Positions 691 through 32,000 of a stretch of DNA of 32,000 nt are shown in pieces. The translations under genes and the position numbers were made by a program. Source of the DNA: Lachnospiraceae bacterium (lineage in GTDB: Bacteria; Bacillota; Clostridia; Lachnospirales; Lachnospiraceae); NCBI GenBank assembly GCA_024405155.1, contig JAKSPC010000002.1:150194-182193 (forward strand). Reading direction: 5' to 3'. The notes beneath the pieces were generated by a model. The model was not told the origin of the DNA and searched no databases. It saw nothing but the letters and a program-made list of their open reading frames with translations. Each line of letters starts with the position of its first letter. Position 1 is the stretch's first letter.

Positions 691-1833
691 ATGAAAACCG
701 CAGCTATTATTTGTGAATATGATCCTTTCCACAACGGACATGCCTATCTGATCCGTAAAGCAAAAACGGAGCTTTGCTATGATCAGGTGATCTGCATCAT
801 GTCCGGCAATTTTGTGCAGAGAGGCGCGCCTGCCGTCTGCGACAAATATCAGCGTGCAAAATGGGCTCTTATGGCCGGTGCCGACCTGGTACTGGAGATC
901 CCGCCCGTCTTTGCCGCTTCTTCTGCCCGGGAATTTGCAGCCTGCGCAGTGCGCGCAGCTGTATCTTCCGGCATTGTGGACGGACTTCTGTTCGGTATCG
1001 AAGGTAACGTTTCTCTCGAGATGCTTAAGGAAGAAGCGAAAAAAGATATCTCTGCGGATTCCGAACAGATCAGAGATATGATGAAACAGGGAATGACTTA
1101 TCCCGAGGCACTCTCCGCTTCCGGGGAGTCCGGTCCGCAGTATTCTTCCAACAATATCCTTGCCGTGGAATACCTCAGGGAACTTGACAGACTTCACTCA
1201 TCCGTGACCCCCGTCCCCGTAAAGAGGATCGGCGATCCCTTTTCTTCCCGTGATCCCGCAGATAAGCGTTTTACTTCCGCAACGGCGATACGGGGACTGC
1301 TTACGGAAGGCGTGTCCGTTTCCTCTTACGTTCCCGGTTTTGTGGCCGCTGATCTGAAACGTCCGGTGGTTGCCGATGATCTGTCATCCATTCTCACCAA
1401 GGCACTTCTTACCGAGCCCGATCTTACCGTATTCCATGATGTTTCGCGTGAGATCGCCGGGCGTCTTGCCAACAGAAAAAACACGATCATGACTTTTACC
1501 GAAAGGATCGCAGATACGAAGACAAGGCAATACACTTATACCAGGATATCCCGGGCGCTCCTTCATATTTCGCTTGGTATGCGTGAAGATGAGTTTCTGA
1601 ACGCAAAAGAAAACGGTTATCTTCGATATCTTCGGATCCTCGGCCTCAGAAAGAACAGTCCTGTGTCATCTCTCCTCAAAAAAAACGCAGCCCTTCCCGT
1701 CATAGGAAGGACCGCGCAATATGCCGATCTGCTGGCCGGTGATATTTTGTACGACCAGATCTATTATTCCGTTTCCGGAGCAAAAGGGGAATTTGACCGC
1801 TCTCCCGTCGTCTTAGACTCTGACGATATCTGA
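691..1833 (+). CDS. tmcAL: tRNA(Met) cytidine acetate ligase TmcAL (YlbM/UPF0348 nucleotidyltransferase)
   Basis: The 380-aa ORF has motifs matching B. subtilis YlbM/TmcAL: EYDPFHNGH, MSGNFVQRGAPA, ADLVLEIP, NNILAVEYLRE, SATAIR, KTRQYTYTRISRALLHI and YLRILGL. Confidence 0.9.
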   Translation: MKTAAIICEYDPFHNGHAYLIRKAKTELCYDQVICIMSGNFVQRGAPAVCDKYQRAKWALMAGADLVLEIPPVFAASSAREFAACAVRAAVSSGIVDGLLFGIEGNVSLEMLKEEAKKDISADSEQIRDMMKQGMTYPEALSASGESGPQYSSNNILAVEYLRELDRLHSSVTPVPVKRIGDPFSSRDPADKRFTSATAIRGLLTEGVSVSSYVPGFVAADLKRPVVADDLSSILTKALLTEPDLTVFHDVSREIAGRLANRKNTIMTFTERIADTKTRQYTYTRISRALLHISLGMREDEFLNAKENGYLRYLRILGLRKNSPVSSLLKKNAALPVIGRTAQYADLLAGDILYDQIYYSVSGAKGEFDRSPVVLDSDDI

Positions 1834-2613
1834 AAGGCCGTTCTGCGGTGCGACTGTCACTCTGGTAAGTCCCGGGTGATACTCTGAAAGAACTTCCTGA
1901 AGCGCTGTCTGCGGTGTGTTGTTGGTCTCGGAAAGATGTCCCAGCAGCACGTGTTTCAGTCTGTCGGAATCGATCTCGCAAAGGAGCTGTCCGCAGCTGT
2001 AGTTGCTTGCGTGACCGCTGTCAGAAAAGATCCGTCTTTTCAAAAACATGGGGTACGGTCCTTCCATCAGCATCTCCGGATCGTGATTTGCCTCAATAAG
2101 CAAAGCGTCCAGTCCCGTGAGATTCTCTCTGATATAATCGTCATAGTGTCCGCAGTCCGTCATGACGCAGACTGCCACGTCTCTTCCGCATACGGCCTGT
2201 TCCTGTTCCAGCCGAAATCCCAGAGGCCCCATGGTATCGTGATAAATGCGGAACGGTCGGACAAGCGTGTTTCCGATATAGAAATCCGTATCGGCAGAGA
2301 TCAGCCGGATCCTGTCACCGCAGTAACGAAAGTATTCGTCCTTGGTAACGCCATACAGGCCGGAAGCCGTACCGTAAGAGGTATAGACGGGGATCCCGTA
2401 GGAATTCATCAGCCTTTTCAGTCCCCGGATATGATCCGCATGCTCGTGTGTCACCAGTACCGCATCTACCTCAGAGAGTGAAAGCCCCAGTTCCTTAAGC
2501 CCTTCGTCGATCTTTTTTGCGGTAATGCCGCAATCGATGAGAATGGTCTCCGTATCTGTTCTGACCAGTGTACAGTTGCCTTTGGAACCGCTGGAAAGGC
2601 TTACCATCATCAT
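1813..2613 (-). CDS. MBL-fold metallo-hydrolase (YycJ/WalJ-like beta-lactamase superfamily)
   Basis: The 266-aa ORF has SGSKGNC near the N-terminus and THEHADHIRG (the HxHxDH zinc motif). Its start codon overlaps the coaE stop (ATGA, 2610-2613). Confidence 0.85.
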   Translation of the reverse strand: MMMVSLSSGSKGNCTLVRTDTETILIDCGITAKKIDEGLKELGLSLSEVDAVLVTHEHADHIRGLKRLMNSYGIPVYTSYGTASGLYGVTKDEYFRYCGDRIRLISADTDFYIGNTLVRPFRIYHDTMGPLGFRLEQEQAVCGRDVAVCVMTDCGHYDDYIRENLTGLDALLIEANHDPEMLMEGPYPMFLKRRIFSDSGHASNYSCGQLLCEIDSDRLKHVLLGHLSETNNTPQTALQEVLSEYHPGLTRVTVAPQNGLSDIVRV

Positions 2614-11607: not shown

Positions 11608-11687
11608 GCCGATATGGCGGAACTGGCAGACGCACATGACTCAAAATCATGCGGGAAACCATGCGGGTTCGAGTCCCGCTATCGGCA
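11608..11687 (+). tRNA. tRNA-Leu (anticodon CAA)
   Basis: Manual cloverleaf. The acceptor is GCCGATA/TATCGGC with discriminator A. The D-arm is GGCGGAACTGGCAGACGC. The anticodon stem is CATGA/TCATG with loop CTCAAAA. There is an 11-nt extra arm, and the T-arm is GCGGG-TTCGAGT-CCCGC. No CCA is encoded. Confidence 0.9.
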
Positions 11688-18260: not shown

Positions 18261-18333
18261 AGCCAACGATGCGACTCGAACGCACGACCTGCTGATTACG
18301 AATCAGCTGCACTACCGACTGTGCTACGTTGGC
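18261..18333 (-). tRNA. tRNA-Thr (anticodon CGT)
   Basis: Manual cloverleaf of the reverse complement: GCCAACG TA GCAC AGTCGGTA GTGC A GCTGA TTCGTAA TCAGC AGGTC GTGCG TTCGAGT CGCAT CGTTGGC T. The acceptor stem is perfect, and the length is 73 nt. Confidence 0.92.
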
Positions 18334-18340
18334 ACGTATT

Positions 18341-18371
18341 AAATGAAAAGAACCATGTGGAGACATGGTTC
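18341..18371 (-). terminator. Terminator-like hairpin between tRNA-Glu and tRNA-Thr
   Basis: The minus strand reads GAACCATGT-CTCC-ACATGGTTC, a perfect 9-bp stem, followed by TTTTCATTT. It begins 2 nt after the tRNA-Glu discriminator. Confidence 0.6.
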
Positions 18372-18372
18372 A

Positions 18373-18444
18373 TGACCTCGCCGAGAATCGAACTCGGGTC
18401 TTCGCCGTGAGAGGGCGACGTCTTAGCCGCTTGACTACAAGGCC
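18373..18444 (-). tRNA. tRNA-Glu (anticodon CTC)
   Basis: Manual cloverleaf of the reverse complement: GGCCTTG TA GTC AAGCGGCTAA GAC G TCGCC CTCTCAC GGCGA AGAC CCGAG TTCGATT CTCGG CGAGGTC A. It has the Glu-type 3-bp D-stem and a G2:U71 wobble, as in B. subtilis tRNA-Glu. Confidence 0.88.
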
Positions 18445-18449
18445 CTAAA

Positions 18450-18523
18450 TCGAGGTGACAAGATTCGAACTTGCGACCTCTGCGTCCCGAACGCAGCGCT
18501 CTACCAAACTGAGCCACACCTCG
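18450..18523 (-). tRNA. tRNA-Pro (anticodon CGG)
   Basis: Manual cloverleaf of the reverse complement: CGAGGTG TG GCTC AGTTTGGTA GAGC G CTGCG TTCGGGA CGCAG AGGTC GCAAG TTCGAAT CTTGT CACCTCG A. The length is 74 nt. Confidence 0.92.
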
Positions 18524-18554
18524 AGATCTTGCTGTTACCTCAACAAGCTCCGCC

Positions 18555-28189: not shown

Positions 28190-28903
28190 TTATACGGTAA
28201 CCGTCGTACCGCCTTTGATATCACCGTTCAGTGCTCTGGTAATGGCACCGGGTTCCTTTAAGGAAAATATCGCGATCGGCATCCGGTTTTCCAGACAGAG
28301 CGCAGCTGCCGTCAGGTCCATGAAGCCAAGCTGTTTTGTGATCACTTCCTTTAGAGATATGGTGTCAAATTTCTTTGCGTCGGGATTTTTCACGGGATCG
28401 GAATCATAAACGCCGTCCACGTTCTTTGCCATCAGGATGCTGTCGGCACCGATCTCAATGGCGCGAAGGGCAATGCCGGTATCCGTGGAAAAATAGGGGT
28501 GACCGGTACCTCCTGCAAAAAACACTACCTTGTGTTCCTCGCACAGTGCCTTCATTACATTATCTTTATCAAAGATGGGCATGATCCCGGGGATCTCAAA
28601 AGATCCGAACACTGCGGTCTTCATTCCCACGGTACGGAAATACTCTGATACGCAGAGGCAGTTCATCACCGTTGCCAGCATGCCGATCTGATCGGACTTC
28701 ACTCTGTCAAAGTTCTGGTTTTGTCTTCCCCGCCAGAAATTTCCGCCGCCTATCACAATGGCGATCTCCACGCCGTTATCCCAGGCTTCTTTCACTTCTT
28801 TAGCAACTTCCAGGATGTTCTCTTCACAGAGACCTTTCTTCAGATCTCCCGCCAGAGCTTCTCCGGAAAGTTTCAGCATGACTCTTCTTTTCTCAGACAT
28901 CAC
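28190..28903 (-). CDS. pyrH: UMP kinase
   Basis: The 237-aa ORF has [37 protein letters not shown] and VDGVYDSDP. Confidence 0.96.
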
Positions 28904-28929
28904 TTCATCTCCCGTGATTCGTTTTTTTC

Positions 28930-28938
28930 AGTATAACA
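28930..28938 (-). promoter_or_regulatory. Possible extended -10 promoter element upstream of pyrH
   Basis: The minus strand has TGtTATACT, ~26 nt upstream of the pyrH ATG. There is no convincing -35. No terminator hairpin lies between the upstream ORF and pyrH, so read-through is equally possible. Confidence 0.3.
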
Positions 28939-28966
28939 TATCGGCAACTTCATTACATCACCAAAT

Positions 28967-31633
28967 TTAGAACTTAAGTTTATTTTCAAGTTTTGGTGAT
29001 GTCTTGTCCGTGATCTCACGCACTTCTTCTTTTGTTTTTCTGACTTCTTCCCACAGTTCCCTTGCAGACATCCTTACTGCGCCTTCTCCGAAAACGATCA
29101 CTTGTTCCAATCCGTCAGAGGTTGCCACGGTCACGTTGTTTTTCCTTGCGATCTCATGAACGGTCTTTTCGATATAGGCGTCCGCGGTCTCCGCTTCTTT
29201 GGTATAGACCACGTGGATATTGTGATATTTCAGTATCGTTTCCTTTCCGCCCTTTACCCGGTAGGCATCAAAGACGGTGATCAGCGTCATTCCCTTAAAT
29301 CCCTGATAATCCGCCAGGATATTCAGCAAAGCTTCTCTGGCACTGTCCAGATTCGTCTTGGCCAGTTCGGAAAGTTCCTTCCATGCGTGGATGATATTAT
29401 ATCCGTCCACCAGCAGAAAATCCTTTTTCTTTTCCGGAAGGATGATATGACCTTCGTTATCATAGTTCACTTTTGACGAAGAGCGGAAATCCAGATCGGT
29501 CCTTACGGGGCCTTTTCGGTCATCTTTTTCTCTCCGGTTTCTGCTTAAGGTCTGTTGAAAATAGGATTCCAGTTCCTTTTCTTCCGCATAGCCGTGGCCC
29601 ATGTAATCGTAGCCGGAAGGAAGCGGCACTCCTTCTGCCTCTTCTTCCGGAATTTCCGGCTCTTCCGGAACAGTCGTTCTGCTGTTCTTTTCCGTGACCA
29701 GCGGAAGATGCATGTGATCTTCCACTTCCTGCCAGGGCACGTAGAAGCCGGCACCGTGTTCACAGAACACGGATCCGGTGGGATTCCTCAGATCCTCTTC
29801 CGGATCGTATGCCGCTTCCGAAACTACCCGTTCCGGGTCGTGGCAGGGATAATACCCGGCAGAGGAAAGTTCCAGCCTTCCGAAACCTTTGGTATATGCG
29901 GAAAGCTCCGCCGCATAATTCTGCAAGCATATCACAGGAGCTTTTCCCGTAAGCACGGAGTTCTTTCCGACGATCTCAGGGCCTGTAAAATCCGCGAACA
30001 GTTTTGTGGAAAGATCGCTCATGGCCCGTCCCGCATTTTCGGAAGGCACCGTCAGTTTGAATTCATAAAACGGTTCCAGGATCACCGTTTCGTTTTTCAT
30101 AAGCCCGTGTCTTATGGCACGATACGTAGCCTGGCGGAAATCGCCGCCCACGGTATGCTTGATATGGTGTTTCCCGGCGACCAGGGATATCTTTACATCC
30201 GTTAGCTCCGATCCGGTAAGGACTCCTCTGTGTCTTCTCTCCGTGAGGTGAGTAAGGACCAGCCTCTGATAGGAAAGCGGCAGTTCGTCCGTACTGAGAA
30301 GGGACTGTACCGTTATACCGCTGCCGTGTTCACCGGGCTCAATAAGAAGATGCACCTCCGCGTAATGACGAAGTGGCTCAAAATGTCCTACTCCCTCGGA
30401 ACAGGCATTTACCGTTTCCTTATAGATGATCCGGTTGTCCGTGAATGTCACGTCCATGGAATACCTGTCCTTAAGGATCCTTTTCAGGATCTCCGTCTGT
30501 ACCGTACCCATGAGACGGATCCGCACGTCACCTTTTTTTCCATAGGGATCCACGGAAAGTTCCGGCAGTTCCTCTTCCAGCTCTCTCAACTTCTGAAAAA
30601 GTACGGTGTTGTCCGTCCCTTCCGGCGGGACTGCCGTCACGGAAAACAGCGGCGTAAGTTTCCGATCCGTGCTGCCCGGATCCTCTCCCAGGCCTTCCCC
30701 GGCAAAAGATCCATCCAGTCCGGTAACGGCCACCACCATTCCGGCAGAAGCTTCCTGGACCGGTCGGAAGGACAGACCGGAAAACAGGCGGATCTGCTCG
30801 ATTTTCGTCTGATATACGGGATCTTCATCCGTTTCCGGATGCATACGGGTGACCTCGGCTTTTGCCCGGAGGGTGCCGCCGGTAACCTTCAGATGGCTCA
30901 ATCGTTCCCCTTTTTCCCGCGTTACCTTGTAAACCAGGGCAGAGAACCTGTCAGGGTATTCCTTTGCTCTCGTAAGGTCCCCCAGTGCCTTTACCAGCGT
31001 TTCGATCCCGTCTCTTTTTAAGGCAGAGCCGCTGTAGACAGGGTAAAGTTTCCCTTCGGCGATCAGCCGGATCACGTCATCTGTCTCAGGGGTTTCTCCG
31101 TTCAGAAACTTTTCCGTCAGTCCGTCATCCAGTAATGCGGTCTCTTCCCCGTAAAGATCACTTCCGGAAACGAACCCTTTGGAAAGTTCCCGGTTAAGCT
31201 CTTTGATCAGCGGATCTGTTCCGGAGTTTACCATATCACATTTATTGATAAATACGAACGTGGGGATGTGGCAGCTCCTCAAAAGCTTCCACAGTGTATA
31301 GACGTGACTCCGGATCCCTTCCGTAACGGAGATCACAAGGATCGCAAGATCCAGAACGGAAAGTGTCCGTTCCATTTCTGCGGAAAAATCCACGTGACCC
31401 GGAGTGTCCAGAAGCGTAAACCTTTTCTCACCGACCTGAAACAGAGCCTGACGGGAAAAGATGGTGATCCCCCGTTCACGCTCCTGGGCATCAGTATCCA
31501 GAAAAGTGTCTCCGTGATCCACTCGGCCGGTCTTCCGGATACTGCCGGTACAATATAAGATCTCTTCGGACAGTGTTGTCTTTCCGGCATCTACGTCTGC
31601 CAGGATCCCCAGCACCAGGTCATTTACGATCAT
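28967..31633 (-). CDS. Fusion protein: a TetM/EF-G-like translational GTPase (five-domain body) joined to a C-terminal Rae1/YacP-type NYN ribonuclease domain
   Basis: This is a single uninterrupted ORF. The track gives 896 aa from a TTG at 31657. I prefer the ATG at 31633 (888 aa), because MIVNDLVLGILADVDAGKTT then matches the short N-terminus of TetM-type proteins. The G-motifs are DVDAGKTT, RGITI, DTPGH, NKCD and GSALK. Domain IV and V strings are GGDFRQATYRAI and ILEPFYEFKLTVP...AAELSAYTKGFG. The C-terminus (LLVDGYNIIHAW...TVFDA...ETADAYIEK...VATSDGLEQ...GAVRMSAREL) is collinear with B. subtilis YacP/Rae1. Confidence 0.9.
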   Translation of the reverse strand: MIVNDLVLGILADVDAGKTTLSEEILYCTGSIRKTGRVDHGDTFLDTDAQERERGITIFSRQALFQVGEKRFTLLDTPGHVDFSAEMERTLSVLDLAILVISVTEGIRSHVYTLWKLLRSCHIPTFVFINKCDMVNSGTDPLIKELNRELSKGFVSGSDLYGEETALLDDGLTEKFLNGETPETDDVIRLIAEGKLYPVYSGSALKRDGIETLVKALGDLTRAKEYPDRFSALVYKVTREKGERLSHLKVTGGTLRAKAEVTRMHPETDEDPVYQTKIEQIRLFSGLSFRPVQEASAGMVVAVTGLDGSFAGEGLGEDPGSTDRKLTPLFSVTAVPPEGTDNTVLFQKLRELEEELPELSVDPYGKKGDVRIRLMGTVQTEILKRILKDRYSMDVTFTDNRIIYKETVNACSEGVGHFEPLRHYAEVHLLIEPGEHGSGITVQSLLSTDELPLSYQRLVLTHLTERRHRGVLTGSELTDVKISLVAGKHHIKHTVGGDFRQATYRAIRHGLMKNETVILEPFYEFKLTVPSENAGRAMSDLSTKLFADFTGPEIVGKNSVLTGKAPVICLQNYAAELSAYTKGFGRLELSSAGYYPCHDPERVVSEAAYDPEEDLRNPTGSVFCEHGAGFYVPWQEVEDHMHLPLVTEKNSRTTVPEEPEIPEEEAEGVPLPSGYDYMGHGYAEEKELESYFQQTLSRNRREKDDRKGPVRTDLDFRSSSKVNYDNEGHIILPEKKKDFLLVDGYNIIHAWKELSELAKTNLDSAREALLNILADYQGFKGMTLITVFDAYRVKGGKETILKYHNIHVVYTKEAETADAYIEKTVHEIARKNNVTVATSDGLEQVIVFGEGAVRMSARELWEEVRKTKEEVREITDKTSPKLENKLKF
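28970..29425 (-). other. Domain annotation: NYN (YacP/Rae1-like, PIN-related) nuclease domain of the fusion ORF
   Basis: The domain starts at KKDFLLVDGYN (around nt 29425). The four acidic positions expected for a NYN/PIN active site are present: the D in LVDGYN, the D in VFDA, the D in ETAD and the D in ATSD. Confidence 0.8.
29845..31633 (-). other. Domain annotation: translational GTPase body (G domain plus domains II-V) of the fusion ORF
   Basis: The motifs are those listed under the CDS entry. The body ends at about ...GRLELSSAGYYPC (around nt 29845). Confidence 0.8.
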
Positions 31634-31637
31634 TACG

Positions 31638-32000
31638 TTATTCTTCGGCCCAATCAAAGGAATGCTTTACTGCTTTTCTCCACATGCGGATCCGCTCTGC
31701 CCGTTCCGCTTCGCCGATGGCGGGTTCAAAGGTCCTGCTGATGGAATGGTTCTTCCGGATGTCATCCTTGTCTTTCCAGTAACCCACGGCAAGTCCTGCC
31801 AGATAGGCAGCGCCTGTGGCAGTCGTTTCCACGCAGGAAGGACGTCTTACTTCCAGTGCCGCAATATCCGCCTGGATCTGCATCAGAAGATCATTGGCAC
31901 TGGCGCCGCCGTCTACTTTCAGCGAGGTAAGTTCCATGCCGGCATCCGCTTTCATGGCTTCCAGCACGTCATTTGTGAGGAAACACAGGGACTCCAGCGT
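31638..32000 (-). CDS. glpK: Glycerol kinase, C-terminal ~120 codons; the gene runs off the right edge of the window
   Basis: The frame is open to the window edge and reads ...[41 protein letters not shown]....V.RP...[18 protein letters not shown]...D. This is the conserved GlpK C-terminus. Confidence 0.9.

Follow-up and report, generated by a model that had tools for sequence, protein, structure and literature searches.

The 32,000-nucleotide stretch of Lachnospiraceae DNA analysed here (contig JAKSPC010000002.1; in its full length, "the window") carries a gene on the minus strand whose predicted product joins a translational GTPase of the EF-G/TetM type to a Rae1/YacP-type NYN endoribonuclease. 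Comparison with its relatives indicates that the fusion is genuine and under selection, both its GTPase and its nuclease being apparently active. Ribosome-associated RNA cleavage is the most economical reading of its role. More specifically, we propose, with confidence and doubt in about equal measure, that the protein cuts mRNA on ribosomes that have stalled or collided, and does so outside the A site.

The gene is a single uninterrupted open reading frame (ORF) at 28967..31657 (-), which gives 896 residues from the TTG codon in the ORF list. The ATG at 31633 is the likely start, in preference to the TTG at 31657, because a 99%-identical homolog (P0001) is 888 residues long and because this ATG stands 4 nt past the stop of the upstream FGGY/glpK-like gene. 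The whole coding sequence then spans 28967..31633 (-), with the stop codon at 28967-28969, and encodes 888 residues. Residue numbers given here refer to the 888-residue version unless stated; coordinates of Pfam matches refer to the 896-residue version.

Five domains of a translational GTPase follow one another in the first 600 residues, all encoded on the minus strand. The G domain (residues 8-219; 30977..31612) has a short G' insertion and matches Pfam GTP_EFTU (16-227, E=1.2e-48). Domain II (residues 230-311; 30701..30946) matches EF-G_D2 (238-319, E=2.5e-06), and its beta-barrel strands are present in an AlphaFold2 (AF2) model. The Pfam match of domain III (residues 328-397; 30443..30652) to EFG_III is weak and under the gathering score (336-405, E=4.3e-04), and the fold is backed by Foldseek matches to full-length EF-G and TetM. 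Domain IV (residues 402-513; 30095..30430) matches EFG_IV (410-521, E=1.4e-15) and aligns with TetO and TetM. Domain V (residues 518-599; 29837..30082) matches EFG_C (526-607, E=3.5e-13), with a predicted local distance difference test score (pLDDT) above 90 in a sub-model. The closest PDB relatives of residues 1-600 are Tet(O) and Tet(M), which align in one collinear stretch (E ~1e-63). The AF2 model of the full-length protein resembles ribosome-bound structures of EF-G and TetM (Foldseek E ~1e-49).

All five G motifs can be mapped: DAGKTT at 15-20, RGIT at 54-57 (switch I threonine, Thr57), DTPGH at 76-80 (His80), NKCD at 130-133 and GSA at 202-204. Each of the P-loop, RGIT, DTPGH, NKxD and GSA motifs is kept in 198-199 of 199 fused relatives. 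The loops at the tip of domain IV are specific to the family. They comprise GHFEPLRHYAEV at 416-427 and KHTVGGDFR at 492-500; in the TetO/TetM alignment, the latter loop (segment HHIKHTVGGDFR) stands where TetM has YYSPVSTPADFR. Their family forms, GH[FY]EPLxHYAEV and KHTxGGDFR, are kept in 197-199 of the 199 fused relatives. A further feature of the G domain concerns residue 13 (31595-31597 (-)), immediately before the P-loop. The window protein and its clade (P0001-P0016, at least 56% identical) have ADVDAGKTT, whereas AHVDAGKTT is found elsewhere. The residue before VDAGKTT is Asp in 16 fused proteins, Asn in two and His in 119, and it is His in 123/123 unfused proteins and fragments.

The nuclease domain occupies residues 738-888 (28970..29422 (-)) and matches Pfam NYN_YacP (PF05991) at 748-893 with E=5.9e-52 and 176.4 bits, against a cut-off of 24.6. 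It is collinear with B. subtilis YacP/Rae1 (PDB 5MQ8/5MQ9; E=3e-30, 44% identity over 143 residues). D743, D789, D818 and D840 of the fusion align with D7, D53, D81 and D104 of Rae1, and the published catalytic-dead mutant of Rae1, in which activity is abolished, is D7N D81N (PMC10351889). The four aspartates are invariant in 80 aligned sequences, and their motifs are present in 198-199 of 199 relatives. Since both the GTPase and the NYN motifs are retained in 198-199 of 199 relatives, both predicted activities appear to be under selection. Thus the core of a preliminary description of this DNA stands: one continuous ORF of ~890 residues (888 from the ATG or 896 from the TTG), five G motifs including the catalytic histidine of DTPGH, a C-terminus collinear with YacP/Rae1 that retains four acidic active-site positions, and GTP_EFTU, EFG_C and NYN_YacP in one polypeptide. 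The extreme C-terminus differs within the family. Proteins of the window's clade end ..KLENKLKF (28970-29050 (-)) and do not have the tail of ~25-35 residues, KNYLFD.L.EE.A..ME..RLG, that most members carry. The Pfam match correspondingly ends at model position 148 of 166, and the last ~18 model positions are missing in this clade.

The two enzymatic parts are separated by what the preliminary description had called a linker of ~140 residues, part of it strongly acidic. The acidic part is there, but the segment is composite, and its beginning is no mere linker. Residues 596-645 (29699..29848 (-)) form a near-invariant module, PCHDPERVV..YDPEEDLRNPTGSVFCEHGAGFYVPWQEVEDHMHL, predicted as helix, beta-hairpin and helix. 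Its pLDDT is ~77-88 in the full-length AF2 model and 35-57 when domain V and the module are folded alone; it is hence confident only within the full-length model. C597, C624, H626 and H642 are invariant among the fusions, and we considered a zinc or other metal site formed by them; this idea is weakened by the lysine that many unfused relatives have in place of H626. The remainder of the segment, residues 646-737 (29423..29698 (-)), is a disordered, flexible tether with an acidic first half, EEPEIPEEEAEG, a helix and a basic second half. The helix, KELESYFQQTLSRN (~685-699), is moderately conserved around KELExIF. Outside it the tether is indel-rich and poorly conserved, with pLDDT below 50 at 650-678 and 696-733. 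Across 199 relatives, the tether is 64-143 residues long (median 86) and never shorter than 64; its first half is net negative in 80% and its second half net positive in 99%. At 3.6 Å per residue, we roughly estimate a contour length of ~230-515 Å.

The architecture is widespread. A scan of one genome per GTDB species, with the C-terminal 299 residues as query and confirmation by tblastn, gave at least 594 confirmed matches, the best 80 of which all cover both the module and the NYN domain. Every complete locus, that is, every one not cut by a contig end, encodes the P-loop, DTPGH and the NYN domain in a single ORF of 866-1009 residues (77/77, each from a different GTDB species), and no split version of the gene was found among these 77. 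The best 120 protein clusters have an identical set of Pfam domains, at 48-99% identity and lengths of 856-1040 residues. One of the longest proteins, P0017 (1040 residues), has an internally duplicated domain IV-V region, which could be a true tandem duplication or an error of assembly. Hosts among the listed matches are nearly all Lachnospiraceae, including Blautia, Dorea, Roseburia, Anaerobutyricum, Agathobacter, Fusicatenibacter, Lachnospira, Herbinix, Kineothrix and others, together with a few other Clostridia such as Monoglobus pectinilyticus. The closest GTDB species among the matches listed is a Candidatus Avilachnospira (58% over the C-terminal part), so that the Lachnospiraceae-like source of the window has no near representative in that set. 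The survey of the architecture that the preliminary description had called for therefore places it mostly in one bacterial family, and the frameshift or stop that it had named as grounds for suspecting merged genes is absent from 77/77 independent species loci.

The GTPase part also exists alone. A search with the 142 residues between domain V and the NYN domain matched only the fusion family and fragments, and two of the matches end right after the module. One of these, P0248, used as a query in turn, retrieved a large set of GTPases without a NYN domain (P0271-P0388; 640-685 residues) from Tissierella, Eubacterium, Paenibacillus, Lysinibacillus, Sporosarcina, Ureibacillus, Clostridium, Massiliimalia and others, and also from megaplasmids of L. 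salivarius. These proteins stop 3-10 residues beyond a variant of the module and have neither tether nor NYN domain. They share the domain-IV loops of the fusions (GH[FY]EPLxHY in 114/114 and KH[TS]xGGDFR in 111/114), which the window protein has at 416-427 and 492-500; Y[YF]SP occurs in 0/114. By inspection, they also carry the module signature ..SVFCxxG..F.V.W.E...MH, found at 620-645 of the window protein. Because the unfused relatives end just past their variant of the module, the module is taken as the original C-terminal end of a Firmicutes GTPase subfamily that is as yet uncharacterised, and the tether and NYN domain as later additions to it. Residues 1-645 belong to this distinct EF-G/Tet-like subfamily of the Firmicutes with its own tip loops and its own module.

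We built a neighbour-joining tree of the GTPase and module from 163 sequences (49 fused, 114 unfused) and 633 columns. All 49 fused sequences fall into one clade that excludes all 114 unfused sequences, and because of this single clade the tree indicates that the fusion arose once. No split pair, in which an unfused GTPase gene adjoins a NYN gene, was found at four unfused loci or on L. salivarius pMP118. On one 2.7-Mb replicon of Paenibacillus cellulosilyticus, an unfused GTPase gene and a stand-alone NYN gene lie 458 kb apart. A group of 33 Ligilactobacillus matches, considered as possible NYN carriers, was rejected since the matches came from the module and not from the NYN domain. On pMP118 (L095, 6384-8902), the unfused GTPase gene is divergent from a paralogous rpsN (S14) gene and a gene for a "putative metal homeostasis protein", an arrangement reminiscent of loci for zinc-starvation (Zur-type) ribosomal paralogues.

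The surroundings of the fusion gene are those of a housekeeping gene. The order in the window is glpK, the fusion, pyrH, frr, uppS, cdsA, dxr, rseP, ispG, polC, a topoisomerase pair, degV, upp and polA. Relatives with 62-72% identity carry the fusion within rpsB-tsf-glgB-(glpK)-fusion-pyrH-frr, and more distant fused members are found in other, varied chromosomal contexts. There are no transposon or plasmid genes around the fusion in the window or in the inspected loci of relatives. Plasmid-labelled matches proved to be large, chromosome-like replicons of Agathobacter and Monoglobus, and a plasmid-borne copy was accordingly rejected. The fusion is also found on two virome scaffolds named "UNVERIFIED: Bacteriophage sp." (MT835563.1 and MT835514.1). 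MT835563, the one of the two that was examined, carries genes for NAD(P)H-hydrate dehydratase, diaminopimelate epimerase and an enolase-family protein. The record is thus bacterial DNA that contaminated a virome data set, and a phage-borne copy was rejected for it. A scan of 28700-32000 for promoters and terminators gave no signal above shuffled expectation. The start of the fusion gene adjoins or overlaps the stop of unrelated upstream genes: it lies 4 nt after glpK in the window (31633-31640), overlaps glgB by 4 nt in one relative (L005, 6001-6004) and overlaps an isochorismatase gene by 4 nt in another (L006, 6001-6004). This arrangement hints at translational coupling or low autonomous expression.

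Why should a GTPase of this kind be joined to a nuclease? Factors such as EF-G and TetM dock on the ribosome at its GTPase-associated centre and place domain IV at the A site or inside it, and Rae1 is a translation-dependent mRNA endonuclease. We propose that the GTPase head of the fusion would dock on a ribosome that cannot proceed. It would sit at the factor-binding site (the sarcin-ricin loop and GTPase-associated centre) and point domain IV at the A site. The ribosome could be a stalled leader with a vacant A site, a substrate of the TetM type, or the trailing, rotated ribosome of a collision, a substrate of the EF-G type that would be unable to translocate; the two are equally open. Because the tether is always at least 64 residues long, the nuclease presumably works at a distance from the GTPase body, and the tether would give the NYN head access to mRNA outside the A site. 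The likeliest target would be the mRNA between collided ribosomes, at the stalled one or behind it, which is where free Rae1 is reported to cut. Deves et al. place the Rae1 cut on stalled ribosomes, at a position 12 nt upstream of the A site (PMC12407103), and a 2026 preprint by Tetreault et al. reports that Rae1 is required for the collision-induced rise in tmRNA tagging (PMC13622287). The side of the ribosome nearest the factor site would be the mRNA entry side, where, in a collision, the tail of the stalled leader would sit; such geometry would reproduce the position of the Rae1 cut. GTP hydrolysis would then release the factor, and the cut would leave upstream ribosomes on a truncated message, leading to tmRNA rescue. 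The protein may thus be a Rae1 with ribosome targeting built permanently into the same chain (in cis).

The preliminary description had pictured the same two activities differently, with the GTPase delivering the NYN domain into the A site for a GTP-gated cut of the A-site codon. Rae1 was indeed originally docked in the A site, with RelE and Cue2 as precedents (PMC12407103), and the fusion partner is itself an A-site-directed factor. However, domain IV would fill the A site and leave no room for a 150-residue NYN domain on the same ribosome, and a conserved tether of at least 64 residues would be superfluous for an adjacent site. The A-site model is also outdated with respect to Rae1, which is reported to cut 12 nt upstream (PMC12407103) and is now placed on collided ribosomes (PMC13622287). 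We consider delivery into the A site distinctly improbable. Somewhat less so, but still unlikely, is an action on rRNA or tRNA rather than mRNA. Here the GTPase would check immature, damaged or hibernating ribosomes, and the NYN domain would trim or inactivate rRNA during maturation, quality control or turnover. YacP was first predicted to function in rRNA/tRNA processing, its stand-alone gene lying with mrnC and rlmB (PMC5499597), and the basic second half of the tether could lie on rRNA. On the other hand, every experimentally defined substrate of Rae1 is an mRNA cut in a translation-dependent manner, and the fusion gene does not adjoin rRNA-processing genes in the window or in relatives.

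The resemblance to tetracycline ribosomal-protection proteins raises the possibility, already mentioned by Atkinson in 2015 (PMC4342817), that the fusion is such a protein with an accessory RNase that adds to resistance. Its best NCBIfam model is tet_protect (NF012153), its best PDB matches are Tet(O) and Tet(M), and many NCBI records are named "TetM/TetW/TetO/TetS family...". Nonetheless, the score for tet_protect is 396 bits against a cut-off of 775, and models for Tet alleles score 207-283 bits against cut-offs of 900-1425 (NF033148, 249 against 1100; Tet(Q), 242 against 1425; Otr(A), 283 against 900). Tetracycline is displaced by the tip loops of domain IV (PMC4342817), and loop III of TetM/TetO, YYSPVSTP, aligns with HHIKHTVG in the fusion; Y[YF]SP is found in only 1 of 199 fused relatives. 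The gene is a core chromosomal one found in hundreds of species, apparently by vertical inheritance, and no transposon or plasmid genes accompany it at the loci inspected. Hence the label "TetM-like" holds for the overall fold and the best match but not for the family cut-offs or the tetracycline-displacing loop, and a role in resistance is very improbable. We assign a similarly slight chance to a toxin-like or anti-phage effector that, under infection or stress, would halt translation through RNA cleavage on ribosomes. Defence and toxin systems often include NYN/PIN nucleases, and the 2026 preprint offers the speculation that phage mRNAs which stall ribosomes might be targets of Rae1 (PMC13622287). 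Against this, no PADLOC-DB family matches at E<=0.01, the loci inspected have no antitoxin-like or defence neighbours, and conservation is family-wide and vertical, as opposed to the patchy spread of defence genes. The anti-phage idea of the preliminary description thus fares poorly, given the housekeeping context, the lack of a PADLOC match and the bacterial nature of the "phage" record MT835563. An artefact, the merging of two adjacent genes by a sequencing or assembly error, was only an a priori possibility raised in that description. With a single ORF in independent assemblies of 77 species and in at least 120 protein clusters, and no split version, it can practically be dismissed.

Several observations weigh against cleavage of mRNA at stalled or collided ribosomes. 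No conserved ssrA, smpB, mutS2 or rqcH neighbour of the fusion is present in the loci of relatives that were inspected. The window's own clade has an aspartate in place of the otherwise universal histidine just before the P-loop, and does not have the C-terminal tail of most relatives. For every family member, ribosome binding, GTPase activity, RNase activity and substrate are predictions, and the ribosome state recognised by the GTPase subfamily is a guess. Furthermore, B. subtilis Rae1 works without such a GTPase, and the GTPase is hence not intrinsically required for cleavage of the Rae1 type. The fusion may replace a stand-alone rae1 gene or be an additional paralogue.

The architecture is not new; it was noted by Atkinson in 2015 (PMC4342817) and by Matelska et al. 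in 2017 (PMC5499597), both of whom left its function open. We found no experimental characterisation in full-text literature searches, whose coverage is incomplete, in agreement with the preliminary description. A fusion to a GTPase goes unmentioned in the 2025 and 2026 papers on Rae1 (PMC12407103, PMC13622287). The architecture has therefore been catalogued, but it has yet to be characterised. What we add is its scale, its single origin, the unfused parent family, the composite nature of the linker, the case against a role in resistance and a mechanism matched to current data on Rae1.

Free Rae1 has recently been recast as the Gram-positive counterpart of SmrB, cutting mRNA on collided ribosomes for tmRNA rescue. 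An ancient and strictly conserved fusion of Rae1 to a factor-site GTPase offers a testable answer to how such a nuclease finds its ribosome in the Lachnospiraceae, dominant commensals of the human gut. It also points to an overlooked family of translational GTPases across the Firmicutes. We put forward, as a doubtful but explicit extension, a "Rosetta stone" interpretation, in which the whole unfused GTPase subfamily (~650 residues) would be a dedicated factor for stalled or collided ribosomes. Rae1 would be its separate partner (in trans) in Bacilli and many Clostridia, and its fused partner (in cis) in Lachnospiraceae. If true, the newly described Rae1-tmRNA (CART) rescue pathway would gain a GTP-dependent step of sensing or release. 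A ribosome-bound structure of Rae1 is lacking, since its binding is transient (PMC13622287); if the GTPase were trapped on the ribosome by GDPNP or by mutation of His80, the fusion would be a tool to capture a Rae1-type nuclease for structure determination.

A more immediate consequence concerns annotation. Public records give hundreds of these housekeeping genes the name [quoted passage not shown], and unfused members of the subfamily are also widely so labelled, although they do not have the YSP loop of TetM. Because housekeeping genes carry the names of tetracycline-resistance genes, name-based or low-stringency searches could inflate estimates of the resistome in gut metagenomes.

Elsewhere in the window, a cluster of genes for tRNA-Pro(cgg), tRNA-Glu(ctc) and tRNA-Thr(cgt) lies at 18261-18524 (-), between polC and the topoisomerase genes, and a gene for tRNA-Leu(caa) lies at 11608-11687 (+), upstream of upp on the opposite strand. 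A metallo-beta-lactamase-fold protein is encoded at 1813-2613 (-). It matches the Anti-Pycsar protein Apyc1 at 38 bits, against a cut-off of 50, and is probably an ordinary hydrolase of the metallo-beta-lactamase type.

How does the fusion compare with systems that are better known? Its nuclease domain is closest to B. subtilis Rae1/YacP, with which it shares a collinear NYN domain at 44% identity and the four active-site aspartates, including the counterparts of the validated D7 and D81. By analogy, a ribosome-linked function is to be expected for this domain, as for Rae1. Rae1 is a free protein of 170 residues that binds the ribosome transiently, whereas the NYN domain of the fusion is the C-terminus of an 888-residue protein and is tethered to a GTPase. 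The genes also differ in setting: the stand-alone gene lies in an mrnC-rlmB-yacP(-sigH) operon, while the neighbours of the fusion are glpK, pyrH and frr. Adjacency of rlmB and a NYN gene was seen for stand-alone genes only, for example in Listeria.

For the GTPase part, Tet(M) and Tet(O) share with the fusion a five-domain EF-G-like fold, a short G' insertion, intact G motifs and a DFR segment in domain IV, but they have the YSPVSTP loop III that the fusion does not, their C-terminal module is different, and they are typically mobile whereas the fusion has a chromosomal housekeeping setting. EF-G itself has the same order of domains and the same G motifs, and its ribosome-bound structures are matched by the model of the fusion. 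However, the EF-G equivalog model TIGR00484 scores 215 bits against a cut-off of 659, the G' insertion of the fusion is ~55 residues shorter (EF-G aligns in two stretches), the domain-IV tip is different, and the fusion has an additional C-terminal module. Relatives within the same GTPase subfamily are the unfused Firmicutes proteins annotated as "translation factor GTPase family protein" (640-685 residues), such as P0371 of Sporosarcina pasteurii, P0282 of Tissierella and LSL_RS10690 of L. salivarius pMP118. They are 41-51% identical to the fusion and have the domain-IV loops and the module in common with it, but they have neither tether nor NYN domain, and they form the sister group or groups of the single fused clade. 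No experimental study of these unfused GTPases was found in the literature searches made.

In its proposed job, namely cleaving mRNA, or acting on it, where a ribosome has stalled or collided so that rescue can follow, the fusion would resemble SmrB of E. coli, Cue2 of yeast and MutS2/RqcU of B. subtilis. In MutS2, as in the fusion, a nucleoside triphosphatase is joined to a nuclease-type domain. The folds are unrelated, with SMR set against NYN and an ABC ATPase against a translational GTPase. Moreover, SmrB reads the 30S-30S interface of a collision, whereas the fusion would anchor at the factor-binding site.

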